NCBI GenBank assembly: GCA_938005745.1
Contig: CALLMM010000005.1
Coordinates: 33,895-97,894 of the forward strand
Length of the DNA: 64,000 bases
DNA from: an uncultured Chthonomonadales bacterium
Lineage (GTDB): Bacteria > Armatimonadota > Chthonomonadetes > Chthonomonadales > CAJBBX01
Direction of reading: 5' to 3'
In this document: piece after piece, positions 53,967 to 64,000 of the stretch
How positions within the stretch are numbered: position 1 is the stretch's first letter
Layout: each line of letters starts with the position of its first letter
Notes under the pieces: generated by a model
What the model saw: the letters and a program-made list of their open reading frames with translations, nothing else
What the model was told of the DNA's origin: nothing
The model's database searches: none
Translations under genes and position numbers: made by a program

Positions 53967-54036
53967 CCCCTCTCTTCTCTCTCTCCTCTTCCCTCTCTTC
54001 CCCCAACGGAGGCGTTTTCTCTCCCCTCTCTTCTCT
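53967..54036. repeat. Polypyrimidine (CT-rich) low-complexity tract
   Basis: 38-nt pure C/T run (53967-54004) and a 22-nt C/T run (54015-54036), preceded by a purine-rich stretch GGAATAGAAGTGAGGAGTAAGAGG. Confidence 0.8.
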
Positions 54037-54135
54037 AGTGTGAAGGAATCCCCCCAAGGAACAGATAATCTCTCCTCTGTAGAAGAAGTGCGATTCCAAA
54101 AGGACGGTCGCACTGCTATATAACCGAGGGGAAAG

Positions 54136-55104
54136 ATGTATCCAGAGACCACAGACACTCGTGAAGATGCCCTCCCTTTCTCACTTCTGCCTTCGGTACC
54201 CTCCTTTGCCGGACATCAGACATTTCCTTTTCGATCTGGATGGCTTAAAAAAGGGTTAGATGCGCTGCAATCTCCTGAGTTGGGAGTAGGCGCGCTGTTT
54301 ACGCGCGAGGATGCTCTGACCATCCTAGGGGTCGGCAAGAATATGACGCAGAGTATTCGTCACTGGCTGCTGACAACACGCATGGCTTGCGAGCGAACTA
54401 CTGGGACAAGACGTACCCTTGAACCAACAGCTCTGGGGAAAGCGGTTTTTGGCTCTCCGGAAATGGAGGGTTTCGATCCCTATCTCGAAGATGACTCCAC
54501 GCTTTGGCTATTGCACTGGATGCTCACCGGACCGGGTAGTTTAGCTTTTACATGGGTATGGGCTTTCCACTTCTTTCGAGAATATGAATTCACCAGAGAG
54601 TCCTTAACTGACGCGATCTATAACGCTGCCCATAACCGTATCACGAAACCTCCCTCTCGTGAAACCGTTGGTCGTGATGTGCAGTGTTGCCTACACACAT
54701 ACATTACGACTGAGCCCAGCGCAGTTCTTGAAGATACCCTCGACCGTCCACTAAACGCCCTCAATCTGATTCTGCCAAGATACGCGATGCACTATCGGTT
54801 TCAGATTGGAGCCAAGCATACGCTGCCTACGGCGATATTCTGTTACGCCCTGTTGGAATTCTGGCAGTGGAAGCATCCTCGTGCAGATACGCTCTCCCTG
54901 TGGGAAATTGCACACGCACAAGGCAGCCCCGGCGTGGCGTTTAAGCTTGACGAAGACTCGGTTCTGGAGTACCTCGACGAGATTGAAATGACAACGCAGG
55001 GAGCCTGGAGATTCGAAGATACGGCGTTGGTACGGCAGGTGGTGCGCACGAGCCTGCAGCCACTCAACGGGCTACTTCTCTTGCAGAGACACTATCATGG
55101 ATAG
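54136..55104 (+). CDS. DUF4007-family protein (SspB-like component of phosphorothioation-type systems)
   Basis: 322 aa. N-terminal FAGHQTFPFRSGWLKKG motif that I recognise as the DUF4007 signature. GAGGGGAAAG Shine-Dalgarno. Its 3' end overlaps the next gene by 8 nt. Confidence 0.75.
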   Translation: MYPETTDTREDALPFSLLPSVPSFAGHQTFPFRSGWLKKGLDALQSPELGVGALFTREDALTILGVGKNMTQSIRHWLLTTRMACERTTGTRRTLEPTALGKAVFGSPEMEGFDPYLEDDSTLWLLHWMLTGPGSLAFTWVWAFHFFREYEFTRESLTDAIYNAAHNRITKPPSRETVGRDVQCCLHTYITTEPSAVLEDTLDRPLNALNLILPRYAMHYRFQIGAKHTLPTAIFCYALLEFWQWKHPRADTLSLWEIAHAQGSPGVAFKLDEDSVLEYLDEIEMTTQGAWRFEDTALVRQVVRTSLQPLNGLLLLQRHYHG

Positions 55105-58100
55105 ACCTGTCTTCCTAGCTGATGTGATTGAGGTACGCAGCCGTTTCCAGCGTTCTGTACACCTGGAGCGAGACTACAACACCTGCGCAGATGGTTATCA
55201 TCCCACTGAGTCAGCTCTTCAAGCGCTGCGAGCCGTAGACCGCGCTCTGGGCTATCCGACAGATCGGGCAATGACCCTGATCGGGCCCTATGGCGCGGGG
55301 AAGAGCGCCTTTTGCGTTCAACTTGCGCATCTGCTGGAGCATCGCACGTTCCAGCCCTGGCTGCAGGCGGCAGGTTCGCTAAATGGCAGCCTGGCACGAC
55401 TCTTTCAGAGTGACGATCGCGCACTCATCCCAATACTCCTCGTCGGTTCGCGCCAATCGCTGGCGTCAAGTTTGACAGCAGCGCTTACGCAGGGACTGCA
55501 GCGCCGCAGTCATGTTCGGCTGCTGGAACATCTGAAGAGAGAGTCGGAGGCGTTAAGATGTCCTGCGCCTTCCCCGCGTCAGACGGCAGATCTATATCAT
55601 ATGGCGGCATCTCATGCGGTGCTAGAGGGAGCGTACGGAGTTGTCTTGATCGTTGATGAGATGGGCAAATTCCTTGAGCATGCGGCGTTGCATCCACAAG
55701 AGGGCGACATCTTCGTACTTCAGGAACTGGCGGAAGCAGCGGCGAGAAGCGGTGAACATCCCCTCATTGTGATGACGGTTTTGCATCAGAGTGCAGAAGC
55801 CTATGCTCAGAAGTTAGGTCGCACATTCCAGGCAGAGTGGTCGAAAATCGGCGAACGTTTCCGACAGATCGCATTTTTCCCTTCCGATATGGAGAGGATC
55901 GAAATGGTCGGGCTCGCCTTAAAACAGAACAACGACCTGCATCGCGACGCGATCGTAGAACGTCTGAGCCTGCTATGTGTAGAACGGAAATTGACGCCAC
56001 CGGGTTTGGAGGAACGGTTTCCTGCGCTCGCCTGTGCCGCCTACCCCCTGCACCCAGTCTCGCTGCTGACACTTCCGGCGCTCTTTCGCAAGATCGGGCA
56101 GAGTCACCGCAGCCTCTTTGCTTTCCTGTCCGGTGATGAACCGCACGCGCTCGGTCGTTTTCTTCGCGAAACGCCCTATGTATCAGACAGCCCTCCCCTC
56201 TATATGCCGGACTCAGTCTTTGATTATGCGGCGGAGGCGCTTCGAGGCTCTTGGAACGCCCCGGGAGCTGCGCGGTTATGGGCGGAAGCGGTAGACACAG
56301 TAGACCGTGCCTTCGACCTCCCGGAACTTCCAAGGCGAGTTCTGAAGGTGATTGCTCTGCTGGGGATCCTCAAAGACCCGCGTCTGACCCCCTCTCAGAG
56401 TACTCTGGAGTGCGCGTTGACAACCGGTAGCGGCGAATACCCTGACATTTCTGATGCGCTTTTGGAGCTTCAGGAACGCCGACTCATCGTCTACAGCCGC
56501 ACGTACAACACCTACCGACTGTGGGAAGGCGGGGATGTGGATATCGAGGCAGAGATGGCGGCTGCACGCGCCGCGCTGCCGGCAGGAATCTCCCTGCACG
56601 TCGCCTCAAACCTGTGTCCGCCGCCCAAACTGATTGCACGCAGACACTCCTACGAGACCGGTACCGTTCGCGCCGTCACGTCGGTCCCCTGCGGAGTGAT
56701 GGATTTGAAAAAAACGGCTGCGGAGCATTCTTCTCAGCTAACCGTGTTGTTGTGTCTGGTGACTTCGCAGGAGGAGGTGGAGCAGGCAGAAACGACTGCA
56801 CGATCCTGTGATCAGTCGCAGACACTTATCGCCATTGCTCGCGAGACCGATACCTTGCGAGAGGCGGCGCAGGAGATTGCAGCTGCACAACGTGTTGCAC
56901 AAGAGACCCCTGGACTCGCCTCTGACCGTGCTGCGCGCCGTGAACTGGCTACGCGACGACAAGAGGCGGAGACGGCGTTCCGTCAGGAGTGGAACCGTCT
57001 CTTCATGCCGGATCAAAAAGCGCGCAGTGAAACGTCGTGGTTTTACCAGCGCCAGCGAATAGAGATAGTAGGTACGCGGAAATTCTCGGCGCATCTGTCC
57101 CGCATGGCAGATCTAACCTTTCCAGACGCCCCGCGTCTACGCAATGAGCTGATCAACCGCCAGACTCTCTCTTCGGCGGCGGCGGCAGGACGCAGAGAGC
57201 TGATCGAGGCGATGCTGACTCATTCAGCAGAGCAACGTCTCGGCATTCGGGGCTTTCCCCCCTCTGCTAGTATGTACGAGTGTCTGTTACGGGCAACAGG
57301 GATCCATCAGGAGGTGGCGCCAGGACGATGGGGTTTCGCATCTCCCTCCAGAGCTCCCCTGTCAGACCCTGCGCGTCTGCTCCCATGCTGGCAAGCGTTA
57401 GAGAGGATGATCTTCCGTGAGCCTCCAGAGCCGCGACCGCTGCGAGAGGTCTATGCCGCGCTCAGTGCGCCTCCGTATGGCATCACTGCCGGGGTAATGC
57501 CGGTACTGTTGTGCGCTTTCCTTCTGGCTCACCCGGACGAGACGACCCTCTACCGGGAGGACACATTCATCGCGGAACCTACTACTGCGGACTGGGAGGT
57601 GCTGCTTCGACGACCGGAGCTTTTTGCCGTTGCCGGATGCCGGGTGAGCGGCGATCGGGCGGCGGTCGTGCAGCGTCTGGCGCGGGGGTTGAAGTGCGCG
57701 CCGGCGCTCGTGCCCGTTGTCCGTGCGCTGTTACGTATGGTTCGCAGTCTGCCTGAGCACTCCTGGAAGACACGGCGCCTGCCCGAGCATGTGTTGGCGT
57801 TGCGCGATGCGATGCAGCGCGCCCGATCCCCCGAAAGCCTGCTGTTTCGCGATCTGCCCGCCGCTTTGGGCATCATCGTGCTCTCTGGTCAGGAGGTAGA
57901 CGACGCACATGTAGAGGAGTTCTTTCGGGCGCTGAACGCCGCCCTGCAGCAATGGAGCCGCGCTACCCCGGATGTAGTTGCTCAGGCGCGTGACGCCCTG
58001 CTGCTGGCATGCGGACTGAATCCTGGCAGCGCGGGGTTCCACACGCTGCGTGAGCAGGCGGCTGTGATGGAGCCGCAGGTAATGGACCCGCGACTACTGC

Positions 58101-58465
58101 CCCTTGTTCGACGAGCCGCACAACCGGGTGACGATCAAACGGTACTTGAGAGCGTTCTTGCGCTTGTCGCCGACCGTCCTCCCCGTACCTGGACAGACGC
58201 CGACGCCGACCGCTTCCATGCGCAGACGAAAGCGATCGGGGCAGTTTTCCGGCGGGAATGGATGCGGGCAGAAGAGTTAGCATCCTCATCCTTGTCGCCG
58301 GATGAGGAGACGCATAGCCGGCAGCTACTGGAGAGCCTGCGCCAGTACCTGAGGACACAACCAGCCTATGCACAGATGCCACCCCGCGTTCTGCGCGCTG
58401 CCCTCTCGGCGCTATTGCAGGAGGTGGACCGTAACGAAATGAATGAAGGAGTACAGACCGAGTGA
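55097..58465 (+). CDS. Large P-loop ATPase, SspC / BrxC(PglY) / DUF499-like
   Basis: 1122 aa. Walker A LIGPYGAGKSAF, Walker B VVLIVDEMGKF, downstream YPLHPVSLLTLPALFRKIGQSHRSLFAFL motif typical of BrxC/DUF499-type ATPases. Confidence 0.75.
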   Translation: MDRPVFLADVIEVRSRFQRSVHLERDYNTCADGYHPTESALQALRAVDRALGYPTDRAMTLIGPYGAGKSAFCVQLAHLLEHRTFQPWLQAAGSLNGSLARLFQSDDRALIPILLVGSRQSLASSLTAALTQGLQRRSHVRLLEHLKRESEALRCPAPSPRQTADLYHMAASHAVLEGAYGVVLIVDEMGKFLEHAALHPQEGDIFVLQELAEAAARSGEHPLIVMTVLHQSAEAYAQKLGRTFQAEWSKIGERFRQIAFFPSDMERIEMVGLALKQNNDLHRDAIVERLSLLCVERKLTPPGLEERFPALACAAYPLHPVSLLTLPALFRKIGQSHRSLFAFLSGDEPHALGRFLRETPYVSDSPPLYMPDSVFDYAAEALRGSWNAPGAARLWAEAVDTVDRAFDLPELPRRVLKVIALLGILKDPRLTPSQSTLECALTTGSGEYPDISDALLELQERRLIVYSRTYNTYRLWEGGDVDIEAEMAAARAALPAGISLHVASNLCPPPKLIARRHSYETGTVRAVTSVPCGVMDLKKTAAEHSSQLTVLLCLVTSQEEVEQAETTARSCDQSQTLIAIARETDTLREAAQEIAAAQRVAQETPGLASDRAARRELATRRQEAETAFRQEWNRLFMPDQKARSETSWFYQRQRIEIVGTRKFSAHLSRMADLTFPDAPRLRNELINRQTLSSAAAAGRRELIEAMLTHSAEQRLGIRGFPPSASMYECLLRATGIHQEVAPGRWGFASPSRAPLSDPARLLPCWQALERMIFREPPEPRPLREVYAALSAPPYGITAGVMPVLLCAFLLAHPDETTLYREDTFIAEPTTADWEVLLRRPELFAVAGCRVSGDRAAVVQRLARGLKCAPALVPVVRALLRMVRSLPEHSWKTRRLPEHVLALRDAMQRARSPESLLFRDLPAALGIIVLSGQEVDDAHVEEFFRALNAALQQWSRATPDVVAQARDALLLACGLNPGSAGFHTLREQAAVMEPQVMDPRLLPLVRRAAQPGDDQTVLESVLALVADRPPRTWTDADADRFHAQTKAIGAVFRREWMRAEELASSSLSPDEETHSRQLLESLRQYLRTQPAYAQMPPRVLRAALSALLQEVDRNEMNEGVQTE

Positions 58466-59286
58466 ACACGCCTGAACCGACCTTAGCCAAGCCTGTACGA
58501 CATATCCTCTCCCTCTCCGGAGGAAAAGACAGCACCGCCCTCGCTATCTACATGCGCGACAAAGTGCCACAGATGGAGTATGTGTTCTGTGATACTGGCG
58601 AGGAGATGATAGAGACATATGAATACCTTGATAAATTGGAAGCTTATCTAGGATGTTCGATTACACGCCTGAATCCTGAAAGACCGTTCAATCATTATCT
58701 TGAAATTTATCGCGGTGTTTTACCTGACGCCAGGACAAGATGGTGTACCCGTATGCTCAAAATTAGGCCTTTTGAGAAGTATGTTGGCGACGACCCGGTC
58801 ATCAACTATATCGGGATCCGCGCCGATGAGAACCGCAAAGGGTACCTCTCCAGCAAGCCCAATATTCAGGCGCGCTATCCCTTCATCGAAGACGGCATTC
58901 GTAAAGAGGATGTGATGCGCATTCTGGAGGAGAGCGGACTCGGTCTACCGGACTACTACCGGTGGCGTTCACGTTCGGGATGCTACTTCTGTTTCTTTCA
59001 ACAGAGAATTGAGTGGGTTGGGCTTCTGGAGAATCATCCCGATCTGTTCGAGAAAGCACATATGTATGAGAAATTCGATTTAGCATCAGGAAAGCGTTAT
59101 ACTTGGTGTCAAAAGGAGAGTCTTCGAGAGTTATCGGATCCAGCCAGATTGGCACAAATCAAAGCTGATTATGAGAAACGAATCTCAGACCAGCAACGGT
59201 TCAAAAGCGGTCGTTCGTTAGGGGAAGTTCTGTCTGATGAGGAAGAAGCAGAATTTGAAAGAGCCTGCCTGATTTGTGAATTGTAG
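58462..59286 (+). CDS. PP-loop ATP pyrophosphatase, PAPS-reductase fold (DndC/SspD-like)
   Basis: 274 aa. SLSGGKDS PP-loop. GTG start overlaps the ATPase stop (GTGA). C-terminal cysteines (SGCYFCFF, CLICEL). Markedly AT-richer than the rest of the window. Confidence 0.8.
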   Translation: MNTPEPTLAKPVRHILSLSGGKDSTALAIYMRDKVPQMEYVFCDTGEEMIETYEYLDKLEAYLGCSITRLNPERPFNHYLEIYRGVLPDARTRWCTRMLKIRPFEKYVGDDPVINYIGIRADENRKGYLSSKPNIQARYPFIEDGIRKEDVMRILEESGLGLPDYYRWRSRSGCYFCFFQQRIEWVGLLENHPDLFEKAHMYEKFDLASGKRYTWCQKESLRELSDPARLAQIKADYEKRISDQQRFKSGRSLGEVLSDEEEAEFERACLICEL

Positions 59287-59321
59287 CCTAAATGAGATAT
59301 TAAACCTACCAGGAGAATTAC

Positions 59322-59566
59322 TTGATTTTAGACGATCTAAATAGATTTTGGGCTTCCATAAACAAGCTGAAACGGGGTAGTCAGTCAGGGAGGCTTAAGC
59401 CGCACAAGCTCGCATGCTACTAGCTGTCCTTGACCTCGCGGAAGACGGGTTTATGAAAGAGAATCGGATATATTATGACGAGGCATTGATCGCACGCTTC
59501 AAGCGTAACTTCAGGCTTCTATCCGATAGGTCGGATTGATGTCAACCTGGTCCCCCGTTTTTTCAC
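59322..59566 (+). pseudogene. Disrupted 5' part of the next gene: DNA-reading head domain (PHK..LLLAVLDL / PFFHL..DFWH type) broken by a frameshift and an in-frame TGA
   Basis: AGGAG Shine-Dalgarno, 6 nt, then TTG at 59322 gives LILDDLNRFWASINKLKRGSQSGRLKPHKLA and stops at TAG 59421. The sequence continues in the -1 frame from about 59415 as (M)LLLAVLDLAEDGFMKENRIYYDEALIARFKRNF...SD, then TGA 59537-59539. It continues in the same frame as CQPGPPFFHLRTSDFWHH into track ORF 59567..60574. Confidence 0.6.
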
Positions 59567-60574
59567 TTGCGCACATCGGATTTCTGGCATCACAAGATAA
59601 AACCCGATCGGCTGGAAGAATATTCTATGTTGGACACGAGTGGAGGTGTTTCCAAACGCACAGTTGACAATATCGAGTATGCCTATTTAAGCGACTATGC
59701 TTTTGCCTGCGTCCTAGATCCCGATAGTCGTCAGATTATCCGACAAAACATCATGAACATCAACAAGTTAGCATTAGCTTTCAACGAAACACTTCCCTTC
59801 AGAAGGTCTTCACTCTCACAAGTTTTGAGAAAATACTCTACTGGTGGAAAAATTACATTCGAAAAACTGTGCAATCATACCACACTAGGTACCAGTGAAG
59901 TTAAAGCTGTTCGAAGAATTTCATATGGCACAGGTTTGATTGATCAATATCATCAGATCACTCCCTTTGGAAAGGTTGTTACAGAACACGATCCAAACTT
60001 CAGTCGAGAATCGACCCAATGGCTCCTGCACTATCATATGTGTGCGCCGCACCGTACCGGTCCGGCGTTCTGGCACCATCTGGTAACGACTCAGCTTCAC
60101 CTCGGCGATGAGCTGAGCTCGCGACAGGTCGCGGAGAGTATACGGGAGTTCTCTCTGCAGGCGGGAGAGAAGGAGCTGAAGTTCGAAACCTACCAGCAGG
60201 CGGCGACGATTTTCCTCGGAACCTACAGCAGTCCGGACGGACTGGGAGACCTGGGCATTCTGAAGCGTGGGGAGGGACCGGCGGTCTATAAGGTTACTCA
60301 GCCGGAGCTGCCCGCGCCGGAGGTTGTCGCCTATGTCGTCGCGGACTACTGGGAGGGCGTATGGCCAACTCTGCTGAGCATAGACTTCAGCCAGTTGACC
60401 GGTGCGGAGGGACCGGCGGCGCTCCTTCTGATGAGAAGCGGCGACATGTTCGAGATGCTGCGTAAGATGCAGGCGGATCACCTGATCCTGCTGGAGCGCG
60501 CCACCCGTCCCTGGAAGGTGAAGCGGCTGTGGGGAGATACACATGAGCTTCTCGAGCGGGTCTTCGCACGATAA
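59567..60574 (+). CDS. DUF4007-like protein (paralog of 54136..55104), possibly the surviving part of an interrupted gene
   Basis: Central region LGTSEVKAVRRISYGTGLID...ESTQWLLHYHMCAPHRTGPAFWHHLV parallels LGVGKNMTQSIRHWLLTTRMA...DSTLWLLHWMLTGPGSLAFTWVWAF of the first DUF4007 protein. It lacks the FxGHxTFPFR N-terminal motif. A functional start, if any, could be TTG 59567 or ATG 59627. Confidence 0.55.
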   Translation: MRTSDFWHHKIKPDRLEEYSMLDTSGGVSKRTVDNIEYAYLSDYAFACVLDPDSRQIIRQNIMNINKLALAFNETLPFRRSSLSQVLRKYSTGGKITFEKLCNHTTLGTSEVKAVRRISYGTGLIDQYHQITPFGKVVTEHDPNFSRESTQWLLHYHMCAPHRTGPAFWHHLVTTQLHLGDELSSRQVAESIREFSLQAGEKELKFETYQQAATIFLGTYSSPDGLGDLGILKRGEGPAVYKVTQPELPAPEVVAYVVADYWEGVWPTLLSIDFSQLTGAEGPAALLLMRSGDMFEMLRKMQADHLILLERATRPWKVKRLWGDTHELLERVFAR

Positions 60575-61043
60575 CCTCTCTGCCTCGGAACTGGTGCAGC
60601 GTCTGCGAAGCCGTACCCTGCGCAATCGTACCGGGATCCTGCTTCTGCCCCCAACCGCGCTCCAGCAGATTGAGGACATCGCGGCAAGGCTGGGGATTCA
60701 GTCTGTTGACTACCGAAGGCTGGTACTGCAAAGAGTGCCGCCGGGCTCCCGCTACGCCGGCATTAGTGTTGATGCGGAGCGGCAGACCATTGACGCGCTT
60801 TTAGAGGACACGCTGGGAAAAGACTGCGTTCTGCTCTACTATCTTGACCTGATCCTGGCGCGTCTGGAGTACGCAGAGCGGCAGCGTCTCTGGACTATTC
60901 TATTTCGTGAGACGTCTAACCGAAGCCGCGCCCTCGTGTTGGCAATGCCCGCAACGGCGAAGCATCTGCTGCCCTCAGCAGATGCGCTGTGTGATTGGAA
61001 GAAGGATGCGCGCGTCGCACTTTACGCCTCCGAACGTCCATAA
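60543..61043 (+). CDS. Hypothetical 166-aa protein of the second module
   Basis: ORF only. Overlaps the preceding gene by 32 nt and ends 10 nt before the next ATG. No family recognised. Confidence 0.45.
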   Translation: MSFSSGSSHDNLSASELVQRLRSRTLRNRTGILLLPPTALQQIEDIAARLGIQSVDYRRLVLQRVPPGSRYAGISVDAERQTIDALLEDTLGKDCVLLYYLDLILARLEYAERQRLWTILFRETSNRSRALVLAMPATAKHLLPSADALCDWKKDARVALYASERP

Positions 61044-61053
61044 CATCCCTATC

Positions 61054-64000
61054 ATGAGGCTGACCGACATGTTAATTAAAGAGATCGTATCACATGACAG
61101 TTTTGCCAACTTTGAAAACGACGTTCAGATCGGCTGGTACCCGAAAGATCCTCGGAACCTACGTATGGTGGAGAGCTACATCTTCACCAACCAGGCGACA
61201 CAGGGGAAGAAATCGTCGCTGGAGATCCTGGATCTGATCCGGCTCTCCTACATCCACAGTCGGGAAAACCGCTTTGTGGTGATGGCGACATATGGTCACG
61301 GCAAAAGCCACCTTGCCCTGACCATGGCCAACTTTTTCGGTCAACCTGCCGACTCACCGGAGGTTCGCGCTATTCTGGGCAAGATTGAGCACTGTTCTAG
61401 CCCTTCGCGCGCACAGGGGTTCCGGGACTTCAAGGAGGGAAACGCCCCGTTTCTCGTCGTGCGTCTGCGCGGAGACAAAGCACCTAAGCTGCCGCAGCAG
61501 TTTCTGCATGGTCTGCAGACCGCCCTGCATGAGCAGGAGGCGACCCGCGATGCGCACCTGCCCTTCTGGTTCGAGCAGGCTGCCGGTTATCTGCAAAAGA
61601 TACAGGATAACTCTCATCAGCTCGCTGCAGCCAACGCCTTTCTGGAGCGGCAGTCCCAGCATCCCTCCATTCGTGACGTCCCGGCGCTTCTGCGGGAAGT
61701 GCAGAACAGCAACCCGTCGGTGCATGAGCTTTGCCGATCGCTCTCAGCAGAGATGAACCATGGCGTGCCGCTGGACTTCGGGGGATCCATAAGCCTGCAG
61801 TATGCGCTGGAGCGGGTTGTAGACGACTATTGCGGTACAGGCAAACCCTACCGTGGCATACTGATCCTATTCGACGAGTTGAGCGCTTTTGTGCGCGACT
61901 ACGCGCAGTCGTCTGGAGTGGGACATGGCAACGCCCTGCAGGATATCCTCGAAGGGGTACGCAACCGTCTGGGACGCGCAACCTTCGTCGCCTTCTCACA
62001 ACACGACCCCCTGGAGACCGCCGAAAACTTCTTCAAGATAGGCACTGCTTCGCATCAACGTGAGACGCTGATGCATCAACTGCAGCGGCTGCCTAAAGAC
62101 CAGAAATACCAGCTCTACTCCTCGCTGGAAATGGTGCTGGACTCCTACCTGAAACAGGAGGAGACTGGTTGGGAACTCCTTTGTGAACAGGCGAGCGATG
62201 CGCTGGATAAAGCGAGCGGCGTCACTATGAACCTCTTCCAGGATCGGTACAATCATGCGCAGGGATGGGACCTTGAAGATATTGACGAGATTCTGACCAA
62301 AGGCTGCTTCCCGCTGCATCCGCTTACGACCGCCCTGCTATGCAGCGTTGAGTTTCGCGAGGTTACCAGTCCGCGCTCCGTACTTGGTTTCCTGCAGGAG
62401 GCTCTCAGCCGATGGGGCGACCAGCCTGCATTGAAAGGCAGCGCCCCCAACTGGCTCTATCCCGTCGAGCTAGTGGACTGGTTTGGCGAGATGCTGGCGG
62501 ATGAGGAGTACCAGCAGTATCGCAGCGCCTGTCTCTCCGCGGGTGCGGATGTCACACCGGAGCAGACCGCCATCCTGAAGGCGATGCTGCTGCAGAGCGT
62601 GGCAAGGTTGAGTACCGAGCGCTATCGCCACTTGCAGCTCATGCATCTGCTGACCGGTCTACCAGAAAAGCAGTGTCAGCAGGCGTTGGAGGGGCTAAGC
62701 AGCCGCCAGGTGATCCGCTCGGACGAGAGCGCCTTCTCCTTCTGGCCTCCAGGCGTAGACGGCAGCCGCCTCGAGCAGGAGGTCAATCGGATCGTTCAGA
62801 CACGCATTTTCAACCTCAACGTTCTGGAGAATATCAATCGGGATTGGCAGGCGAGCCGATTGCAGGCTATCCGGGTAGATGCTCTCTCCTGGGCTAACGA
62901 TGCTGACTTCTCCGCCCGTCAGATTCTGGTCACTCACGAAGCCTTCTCGCCGGAGTTTCTGCGTAGACAGATCAAGACTTTCCGAAGCTCCGGAGACCTG
63001 GACACTCCCCGCGGCTTTGTGTTCTGGCTAGTCGCTCAGACCCACGATCAGATTCTGGACTACATCGAACGGGCGGAGCAGGTGCTGGAGGAGGCGTTAA
63101 AGGGGATAGAATCTCCTCCCCCCGTTCTGATTGGGGTGCCTGAAACCCCTACTCCAGAGTTCGAAAAGCTGGTACTGAAGGAGGATGTCATCAACAATCT
63201 TCCGCAAAATATCATACGCAACTCCGACTCGTCGGTCCTCTTTCAAATGAAAGAGGACTACAAAAAGAGGGTGTCTGCTGCTCTGACAACTCTTAAGGAG
63301 AAAGCGGACTTCCACGTACCCCTTCGCTACCGATCGCACGTCAAAATCCGATCTCCCCACAGACGCTGCGAGACCATGCTGCCAGCCTGTTATGAAGCCG
63401 CCTACCGACTGGGTCCGCCAGCGTTTCGTAAGCAGACACCTTTCACAAATCCGTCTCTGCGCAAGGCGGTTGGATTACTTGCCGAAGGGCTATCCAAAAA
63501 CAACCTCCACTTGCCCGAGCATGCATGGCGCAAAGACAAAGTCGCCGATGAGATTATGAATAAGTTTCTGCGTATAGGTGGGATCTCCTCGTGGAGACTG
63601 GTCGGCGCGGACTACGCGGTGTGCGAGCCGGGTGACGCTAACATACGCGAGGCATGGGACTACCTGAACCGTCATTTCGAGCCAGGCAAAGGCGCTGTGC
63701 CGATCCGGGACGCCGTCCTGACACTGATGGATCCTCCCTACGGCTACGACCCGAACCATGTGACCCTGCTTCTGTCCGCCTGGTACGGCTATCACCGGCA
63801 CGAAGTAAAGCTGCGCGAGGATCACTGCTACACAACGCTGGACACTCTCTTCAAGCACCCCTTCAAGACGGAGGATTTCCTGAAACGACTCCTGGACCGG
63901 ATAAATACCCTCTATATCGAAAGAGTGGATCGGGGTGAGACGATCCGACAGGCGGAGAAGCTCGCGAATATGGTCGTTAAGGGAGGCAAAAAATTCACTC
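61054..64000 (+). CDS. Second large P-loop ATPase, BrxC/PglY/DUF499-like (3'-partial, runs off the window)
   Basis: Not in the ORF track because no stop is reached. I translated 61054 to 64000 by hand and found no stop (more than 980 codons). Motifs: MVESYIFTNQ, Walker A VMATYGHGKSHLAL, Walker B GILILFDELSAF, CFPLHPLTTALLCSVEFREVTSPRSVLGFL (paralogous to the YPLHP motif of 55097..58465). Start is ATG 61054 or ATG 61069 (GAGG 8 nt upstream). Confidence 0.7.
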   Translation, partial: MRLTDMLIKEIVSHDSFANFENDVQIGWYPKDPRNLRMVESYIFTNQATQGKKSSLEILDLIRLSYIHSRENRFVVMATYGHGKSHLALTMANFFGQPADSPEVRAILGKIEHCSSPSRAQGFRDFKEGNAPFLVVRLRGDKAPKLPQQFLHGLQTALHEQEATRDAHLPFWFEQAAGYLQKIQDNSHQLAAANAFLERQSQHPSIRDVPALLREVQNSNPSVHELCRSLSAEMNHGVPLDFGGSISLQYALERVVDDYCGTGKPYRGILILFDELSAFVRDYAQSSGVGHGNALQDILEGVRNRLGRATFVAFSQHDPLETAENFFKIGTASHQRETLMHQLQRLPKDQKYQLYSSLEMVLDSYLKQEETGWELLCEQASDALDKASGVTMNLFQDRYNHAQGWDLEDIDEILTKGCFPLHPLTTALLCSVEFREVTSPRSVLGFLQEALSRWGDQPALKGSAPNWLYPVELVDWFGEMLADEEYQQYRSACLSAGADVTPEQTAILKAMLLQSVARLSTERYRHLQLMHLLTGLPEKQCQQALEGLSSRQVIRSDESAFSFWPPGVDGSRLEQEVNRIVQTRIFNLNVLENINRDWQASRLQAIRVDALSWANDADFSARQILVTHEAFSPEFLRRQIKTFRSSGDLDTPRGFVFWLVAQTHDQILDYIERAEQVLEEALKGIESPPPVLIGVPETPTPEFEKLVLKEDVINNLPQNIIRNSDSSVLFQMKEDYKKRVSAALTTLKEKADFHVPLRYRSHVKIRSPHRRCETMLPACYEAAYRLGPPAFRKQTPFTNPSLRKAVGLLAEGLSKNNLHLPEHAWRKDKVADEIMNKFLRIGGISSWRLVGADYAVCEPGDANIREAWDYLNRHFEPGKGAVPIRDAVLTLMDPPYGYDPNHVTLLLSAWYGYHRHEVKLREDHCYTTLDTLFKHPFKTEDFLKRLLDRINTLYIERVDRGETIRQAEKLANMVVKGGKKFT

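Follow-up and report, generated by a model that had tools for sequence, protein, structure and literature searches.

A second DUF4007 gene with a disrupted, predicted sulfur-binding head in a phosphorothioate-writing BREX-like island of an uncultured Chthonomonadales bacterium

The 64,000-nucleotide stretch of DNA analyzed here (contig CALLMM010000005.1, positions 33,895–97,894, assembly GCA_938005745.1, from an uncultured Chthonomonadales bacterium; below, the window) carries an island of predicted phosphorothioate (PT) modification genes followed by genes resembling those of bacteriophage exclusion (BREX) systems. The order of the island genes is sspB-sspC-sspD-[SBD-DUF4007]-small-large ATPase-pglZ-brxL, where SBD stands for sulfur-binding domain. 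The fourth gene, a "second B" referred to below as B', is broken in its 5' part by a one-nucleotide (1-nt) deletion and an in-frame TGA. These lesions were noticed in an earlier sequence-only reading of the window. Here we describe the gene, its relatives and its neighborhood. All coordinates are positions in the window, and protein residues are numbered on the conceptual read-through of the gene (417 amino acids, aa). The features are collected in Table 1.

Table 1. Position of the B' gene parts, its lesions and the other island genes in the window (L049 and L050 are contigs of two strains, see text; PAPS, phosphoadenosine phosphosulfate).
Feature	Position	Strand	Description
Shine-Dalgarno and start of B'	59311..59324	+	AGGAG 59311-59315, 6-nt spacer, TTG 59322-59324; read directly
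Predicted SBD head, fragment 1	59322..59413	+	residues 1-30 and two bases of the Ala31 codon; includes cavity His28 and Lys29
1-nt deletion	59413..59414	+	third base of Ala31 (GCN) gone; same in L049 and L050
Predicted SBD head, fragment 2	59414..59536	+	residues 32-72, frame one base back
In-frame TGA	59537..59539	+	replaces Trp73; in both strains
Predicted SBD head, fragment 3	59540..59725	+	residues 74-135; cavity Pro78, Pro79 and His82, plus Thr85
Linker and predicted SspB-like (DUF4007) triple winged helix-turn-helix body	59726..60574	+	residues 136-417, open frame
Mosaic junction	60005..60016	+	conserved TQWLLHYH motif in B'
sspB	54136..55104	+	first DUF4007 gene, intact; Pfam DUF4007 E 7e-74, PADLOC SspB E 1.5e-86
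sspC	55097..58465	+	BrxC/PglY-related ATPase of PT writer, intact, 1122 aa; PADLOC SspC E 9e-298
sspD	58462..59286	+	PAPS-reductase-type sulfur transferase of PT writer, intact, 274 aa
Small protein	60543..61043	+	166 aa, conserved 3' of the second DUF4007 gene, BrxB position
Large P-loop protein, 5' part	61054..64000	+	frame open to window end; 1404 aa in full

The start of B' could be read directly as the sequence-only reading had given it, and in an alignment with 16 intact homologues the TTG falls on their Met. The frame opened by this codon encodes LILDDLNRFWASINKLKRGSQSGRLKPHKLA, including the segment ...GRLKPHKLA; without repair it ends ...ACY at a TAG (59421-59423) after 33 codons. One base back, the frame from 59414 reads MLLAVLDLAEDGFMKENRIYYDEALIARFKRNFRLLSDRSD and, in a longer reading, MLLAVLDLAEDGF...RLLSDRSD up to the TGA, after which the same frame goes on as CQPGPPFFHLRTSDFWHH... 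as far as the TAA at 60574. This last part contains the listed open reading frame (ORF) 59567..60574. Both the stop and the continuation behind it were confirmed.

The alignment with the 16 intact homologues also fixed the lesions to the nucleotide. The homologues read KPHKL-x-MLLAVLDL and D-W-CQPGPPFFHLR (n = 16). In the register of the first motif exactly one base is lost, the third of the Ala31 codon, which refines the earlier estimate of a deletion near 59415 to the junction of 59413 and 59414. The column of the TGA holds Trp in 13 of the 16 homologues and Leu in three, and the stop therefore most likely arose by a change of TGG to TGA. That TGA is a real stop in this genome follows from sspC, which ends on TGA. 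The read-through requires no repair of any other indel or stop, and it aligns end to end with homologues of 415-456 aa (best full-length homologue, E 5e-109). In the window copy the coding sequence of the head is thus interrupted by the deletion and the TGA, and this is the case in two strains. Translation initiated at the TTG would now give a peptide of 33 residues.

Two independent data sets show that the lesions are present in the organism. An independent Logan assembly of run X1, the run that holds the window's sequence, includes a 27.8-kb contig identical to the window over 58400-61100, with a word depth of 22. A look-up with the neighboring 166-aa protein retrieved this contig (L049, identical to the window and extending beyond it) and a contig from another run (L050). 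With 26 substitutions and one indel relative to L049 in 20.5 kb, L050 represents another strain; it is identical to the window over 55804-60436, both lesions included. The resulting tract of about 4.6 kb without single-nucleotide differences around the head was considered as a possible signal of its own, and no conclusion was drawn from it, since the 20.5 kb contain other difference-free tracts of 3-4 kb.

The sequence-only reading had left open that the gene is intact in the organism and that the frameshift and the stop are errors of sequencing or assembly in an AT-rich stretch. Two circumstances would suit such errors: the lesions are supported at the contig level only, and the region is lower in G+C than its flanks. 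However, both lesions recur in the contigs of two runs, which belong to different accession series and were assembled independently, and these contigs differ elsewhere by 26 substitutions; the depth is about 22; the deletion lies in the context CTCGC|ATGCT, which has no homopolymer; and a G-to-A substitution is untypical of assembly artefacts. The region is also not AT-rich enough to explain the lesions. Because the two runs and strains share the lesions and the deletion lies outside a homopolymer, we conclude that the lesions are real and that an assembly error is very unlikely. Since both strains carry both of them, the lesions are older than the split of the two strains.

It would be even more improbable that a full-length product is still made by programmed recoding, that is, by a -1 frameshift at codon 31 together with read-through of the TGA or insertion of selenocysteine there. 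In favor of recoding, two strains maintain both lesions and the frame behind them has stayed open. Against this, no slippery heptamer exists at CUC GCA UGC, for which reason programmed frameshifting at codon 31 was ruled out; sspC uses TGA as a stop; and there would be no precedent for two independent recoding events within 125 nt. Furthermore, none of 41 full-length homologue clusters needs recoding, and all have ordinary Ala/Val/Ile/Leu and Trp/Leu codons at the two positions.

In a phmmer comparison, residues 8-135 of the conceptual read-through, the only form of the protein to which the match applies, aligned without gaps across both lesion sites with chain A of PDB entry 8H0L (E 1.1e-26, 97 bits). 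This structure is the SBD of the PT-dependent endonuclease Hga (SBDHga) bound to PT-DNA, and its sulfur cavity is made up of H25, K26, L75, P76 and H79 (PMC10602919). With a chain offset of three, the equivalent residues in the window are H28, K29, P78, P79 and H82. Four of the five are identical (H28, K29, P79, H82), and L75 is replaced by P78, as it is throughout the subfamily. The frameshift sits two codons past the cavity His-Lys, and the TGA occupies the position of SBDHga R70, a DNA-backbone contact.

The closest intact homologue of the read-through (P0001; 45% identical overall, 60% in the head) was modeled with AlphaFold2 from a 48-sequence alignment (predicted local distance difference test score, pLDDT, 91). 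In a Foldseek search of the PDB the N-terminal 149 aa of this model matched 8H0L with a template modeling (TM) score of 0.89 and a root-mean-square deviation of 1.8 Å, and the model also matched the SBD structures of SprMcrA (7CC9/7CCD) with a probability of 1.0. By homology, the head is a sulfur-binding domain of the PT-recognizing type, in agreement with the proposal of the sequence-only reading. When intact, it is predicted to read the sulfur of PT-DNA in a hydrophobic pocket.

The same reading had compared the head to those of McrA-like restriction enzymes. The kinship of the SBDs stands, but Pfam, NCBIfam and PADLOC revealed no HNH or other nuclease domain in the 417-aa read-through or in P0001. 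A PT-dependent type IV endonuclease of the ScoMcrA/SprMcrA/Hga type was therefore ruled out for this polypeptide. It should be mentioned that SBDs of the same subclade are fused to HNH_2 elsewhere (P0048, P0150, P0164), in the classical ScoMcrA-like architecture. Domain profiles added little on the head itself. Pfam gave no match to the head alone even at E 10, an uninformative result given that the scan reported no SBD model for the SBD-annotated P0051 either; with NCBIfam, the read-through had a sub-threshold match only, to "phosphorothioated DNA-binding restriction endonuclease" (E 0.039).

The body of the protein had been called DUF4007-like, and this was borne out by several comparisons. 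It matched Pfam DUF4007 over residues 190-390 with 49 bits (cut-off 27) and PADLOC SspB with E 8e-16, and the C-terminal ~300 aa of the P0001 model matched the SspB structures 6LB9/6JUF in Foldseek (E 6e-9, TM 0.60-0.62, ~305 columns). Both profile and model thus assign the body to the SspB-like (DUF4007) fold.

Intact full-length homologues of the read-through fall into 41 clusters at 97-100% coverage, and the same ATPase gene was found adjoining intact orthologues, a check that the sequence-only reading had suggested. To describe the distribution of the head we used 38 loci from one genome per species, of which 2 are fused, 10 split and 26 headless. In the split loci (L012-L014, L017, L018, L021, L024, L032, L033, L039), mostly from Chloroflexota, a free-standing SBD protein is present in the PT-BREX island. 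The SBD ORF (159-178 aa) is closely followed by one for the body (269-301 aa), which lies in another frame or past an in-frame stop and often has its own Shine-Dalgarno sequence. In the headless loci the body begins a few codons past sspD. A similar picture emerged from the best 150 clusters (50% identity level) in a search with P0001, with ~16 fused proteins, ~20 of SBD size, 7 with an SBD and another domain, and ~105 consisting of the body only. Since the headless form is the commonest among relatives, the head appears to be an optional, accessory module, predicted to read PT.

The nearest relatives of the window's gene are themselves headless, and they are alike only downstream of ~60010. 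DNA identity to L052 and L051 (86% and 73%) starts abruptly at 60009/60010 within TQWLLHYH, and none is found upstream; correspondingly, protein identity is 82% and 71% past residue 224 and 31% and 36% before it. The closest relatives of the 166-aa small protein come from the same two loci (81% identical in L052, 70% in L051). In L051 the sspD stop is followed by nine codons and then by the headless protein MEKLGISFH.... At the junction the G+C content of third codon positions rises from 0.23 to 0.60 and above. Taken alone, the dip in G+C was rejected as a sign of foreign DNA. The same drop 5' of the motif, spanning sspD and the head, is also seen in L011, L015, L051 and L052, and as the variable 5' part is low in G+C in every lineage examined, the dip does not prove which lineage is the recombinant. 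What supports a mosaic is that the dip coincides with the point at which DNA homology suddenly breaks off. On the left, no boundary of the exchanged segment could be found, and per-segment identities to distant homologues revealed no discordant relatives. These comparisons indicate separate origins for the 5' segment with the head and for the remaining two-thirds of the gene, which would make the head part of an exchangeable cassette. In this host the head was probably dispensable or ill-matched.

The other genes of the island are full length in the window's strain. The PT-type writer that had been expected next to B' lies directly upstream, where PADLOC identified SspB, SspC and SspD. The sspB product is, by homology, the DNA-recognition/nickase subunit of the writer. 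The sspC match covers positions 1-1049 of the 1054 in the PADLOC profile, and sspD is recognized by PADLOC SspD (E 6e-116) and Pfam PAPS_reduct (E 1.6e-13).

Downstream of B', the small protein had no match in Pfam or PADLOC and none in the PDB by profile. Its AlphaFold2 model was of low confidence (pLDDT 55), and Foldseek returned nothing below E 0.1, the weak top matches being AAA+/ORC (origin recognition complex) cores. These sequence and fold searches gave no support to its assignment as BrxB/DUF1788. The large gene corresponds to L049 10527-14741. The first 982 aa of its product matched PADLOC SspC (E 5.5e-20); the complete 1404-aa protein had no PADLOC match at E 0.001, a discrepancy probably due to filters, and no sequence match in the PDB. 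Because the full-length scan was empty, the protein is only tentatively labeled a distant SspC/BrxC-like ATPase. Beyond the window, L049 contains the whole large gene followed by PglZ (PADLOC E 7e-78) and BrxL (E 9e-208). A PAPS-reductase protein, a BrxC/SspC-type ATPase, PglZ and BrxL thus lie in one cluster on the same contig as the window's sequence.

From ~54000 to 64000, and on to ~68900 in L049, the island has a G+C content of 0.50-0.60 against 0.62-0.68 in the flanks, as would be expected for horizontally acquired DNA. The genes of extracytoplasmic function (ECF) sigma factors on either side were considered as flanking repeats or duplicated ends and rejected, being 29% identical. Past the window end (L049 18386-18720) the island stops after brxL without a cysteine desulfurase gene, which is present in 21 of 25 related islands. 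With no island desulfurase, sulfur in this organism would have to come from a housekeeping desulfurase.

The same gene order, usually with a terminal cysteine desulfurase, surrounds intact homologues in an Armatimonadota metagenome-assembled genome, in a metagenomic lineage and in Hymenobacter aquaticus. Among the 38 species loci, counting those with enough flank, B' is accompanied by sspD in 32 of 35, sspC in 29 of 31, sspB in 29 of 31, the small protein in 32 of 36, the large ATPase in 32 of 33, PglZ in 28 of 29, BrxL in all 26 and the desulfurase in 21 of 25.

Several side observations were made on these islands. Effector protein sizes vary considerably among them. In the Armatimonadota relative the large ATPase has 1866 aa against 1404 aa here (L001/L011 11112-16712), and BrxL carries an extra DUF4145 domain (L001/L011 18754 onward). 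In Hymenobacter aquaticus (L006 5812-9177) sspC is called as two ORFs (246 + 860 aa), so that a broken writer ATPase may stand beside an intact SBD-DUF4007 gene; in the related L015, tblastn covers only part of sspC. Finally, a 152-bp contig (depth 2) of a soil metagenome run (X2) is 100% identical to sspD 58930-59081, while the window's own run is labeled marine metagenome. The match could mean that the organism is also present in that run, at low abundance, or that this segment of sspD is shared.

Taken together, these data suggest, with a probability that we put at roughly 0.8, that the broken region is the 5' third of a real gene; that the intact form of this gene encodes a two-part DNA-binding protein, SBD plus SspB-like body, acting as B' of a PT-writing BREX-like island; and that the SBD has been inactivated here. 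The inactivation is recent and specific to the SBD. In such an island SspBCD would write PT on host DNA, and B' would act as the DNA-scanning subunit of a BREX-like restriction module formed with the large ATPase, PglZ and BrxL. Where it is present, the SBD would let this module read PT at the site, i.e., whether the DNA is self. In the lineage of the window the head would have been knocked out by the loss of a base in codon 31 and the TGG to TGA change in codon 73, leading either to the common headless form of the gene or to loss of the B' protein.

The fate of the body decides between these two outcomes. Its frame is open for 345 codons, and translation may still start at ATG 59627 (the choice of gene callers, 315 aa) or at ATG 59753 (Met145). 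Headless natural bodies start at the position of residues 140-150, exactly where the second of these codons lies. If the body is made, the island would resemble the majority of islands, which are headless; if it is absent, the island would be without B' altogether. The coding substitutions between the two strains that were classified over 50380-65268, i.e., the island and the genes just upstream, comprise six synonymous and two non-synonymous changes. Two of the substitutions fall inside the body and both are synonymous, numbers too small to prove selection.

A number of points weigh against the reading proposed above: (i) the role of B' in restriction, not modification, is read from gene order and co-occurrence only; (ii) one cavity residue differs family-wide (Leu to Pro), and PT binding by this SBD subfamily is a prediction; (iii) both data sets that support the lesions are assembled contigs, which drop rare variants, and a minority intact allele may exist; (iv) BrxA structures are absent from the Foldseek matches of the P0001 model; (v) neither internal ATG has a convincing Shine-Dalgarno sequence, leaving expression of the body uncertain; (vi) of 82 highly conserved alignment columns, the read-through has a non-consensus residue in 12, a count within the family range (0-19) but near its top, four of these changes falling in the DNA-contacting part of the SBD and another replacing His155 of the FHE motif (98% conserved) by Asn, so that the whole gene could be drifting; and (vii) at the position equivalent to 61338, L050 has TTTTTT in place of TTTTT, which splits the large ATPase gene into 106 + 1274 aa. 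The extra T may be a real frameshift, reflecting decay or phase variation of the effector and hinting at decay of the whole module, or it may be a homopolymer error.

The last three points would also fit a different outcome, in which B' has lost its function as a whole and not just its head, the BREX-like restriction arm is in decay and SspBCD persists as an orphan PT writer. We consider this rather unlikely, while giving it more weight than any other alternative. The body is still open and has accumulated only synonymous changes between the strains; the window's strain has full-length versions of the small protein, the large ATPase, PglZ and BrxL; headless or split bodies with the same start position are the natural majority; and the T5/T6 difference may be an error. 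The inactivation of a toxic restriction arm, one of two alternatives in the sequence-only reading, was not borne out, the restriction module being otherwise intact and most natural relatives headless. Silencing of a head that did harm in its background is a possible but unsupported explanation.

The position of B' allows another assignment of the protein, on the modification side of the island, where its SBD would attach it to sites that already carry PT, so as to direct or restrain SspBCD (in maintaining or spacing the marks). The gene is a paralogue of sspB located directly 3' of sspD, the literature writes the island as sspBCDB, and in PT systems only some of the sites become modified (PMC12914056). 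However, classical sspABCD-sspE systems modify DNA without a second B. In addition, B' nearly always co-occurs with the small protein, the large ATPase, PglZ and BrxL, and it evolves at the faster rate of this module, its identity to L001 being 37-44% compared with 57-72% for SspBCD. On balance, a role in modification seems unlikely, and we prefer to place B' with the restriction module.

The mosaic structure of the gene permits a bolder version of this assignment, which we regard as doubtful. The SBD and the first winged helix would form a swappable "reader cassette" that tells a BREX-type effector the PT status of the DNA, with swapping by recombination at the 3' end of sspD and at TQWLxHYH, much like the shuffling of target-recognition domains in type I systems. 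The SBD would then serve for self-recognition and not for attack on PT-DNA. The window would represent a headless lineage that gained a head and then silenced it, as a mismatch to the resident PT pattern was harmful.

The island type itself is already known, and the combination of an SBD with an SspB-like domain appears to be new. To our knowledge, every characterized SBD belongs to a nuclease that attacks PT-DNA. In the literature available to us we found no description of an SBD on an SspB-like or second DUF4007 protein. A survey of SBD architectures lists HNH, SRA-HNH, unknown-domain-HNH, kinase and PD-(D/E)XK partners, with no SspB-like partner (PMC10602919), and an SBD on the second DUF4007 is mentioned in none of PMC12914056, PMC12839542 and PMC9240713.

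An SBD fused to or located beside the SspB/BrxA-like DNA-binding subunit of a PglZ/BrxL module, in the operon of a PT writer, is a concrete and testable candidate for the sensor by which PT-based and BREX systems would tell self from non-self. The fused, split, absent and, in the window, broken heads provide a natural series of variants. From the window copy it appears that an island can lose its reader and otherwise remain intact, and that lineages exchange the 5' part of the gene. It should be mentioned that the database label of such proteins is only "DUF4007 family protein", and the reader domain consequently goes unnoticed.

Comparison of the island with known systems revealed its closest counterparts in BREX type 4, or "sspBCDB-brxCZL", islands, which have the same set of genes, including a PAPS-reductase protein, DUF4007, a BrxC-like ATPase, PglZ, BrxL and often a cysteine desulfurase. 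Islands of the sspBCDB-brxCZL type were named in 40 strains, and BREX type 4 proteins make PT (PMC12914056). Canonical BREX type 4 has a single ATPase and a fusion of PAPS reductase with DUF4007 (BrxP), whereas in the window's island the writer and the effector each have their own DUF4007 and ATPase. In B. salyersiae a separate mcrA gene is located at a comparable place (PMC12914056; PMC12839542).

The body of B' shares its DUF4007 signature, its predicted fold and its sspC/sspD neighborhood with SspB of the SspABCD-SspE systems (6LB9/6JUF), and B' is a second, diverged SspB paralogue (in L011, B' and the first SspB of the locus are 23% identical). It differs from SspB by the SBD added at its N-terminus and by its link to the pglZ/brxL module. 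Its equivalence to BrxA of type 1 BREX is positional and indirect, by way of SspB and the literature: BrxA is structurally similar to SspB (PMC9240713), and DUF4007 has been described as a BrxA-like triple DNA-binding module, or triad (PMC12839542).

The head, in turn, resembles SBDHga of the Hahella ganghwensis endonuclease Hga in its His-Lys and Pro...His cavity residues and in Thr85. It differs in that Leu75 of SBDHga is Pro and the backbone-contact Arg70 is Trp in the subfamily of the window, whose own copy is broken. In Hga the SBD is coupled to a PD-(D/E)XK nuclease attacking PT-DNA, whereas here it is carried by a non-nuclease SspB-like body in the operon of a PT writer. The SBD fold is likewise common to the head and to the type IV PT-dependent endonucleases ScoMcrA and SprMcrA. 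These enzymes carry HNH, while HNH, SRA and other nuclease domains are absent from the window protein and from its full-length homologues. Since the SBD gene is here encoded together with the writer, its genomic logic would be opposite to that of ScoMcrA and SprMcrA.

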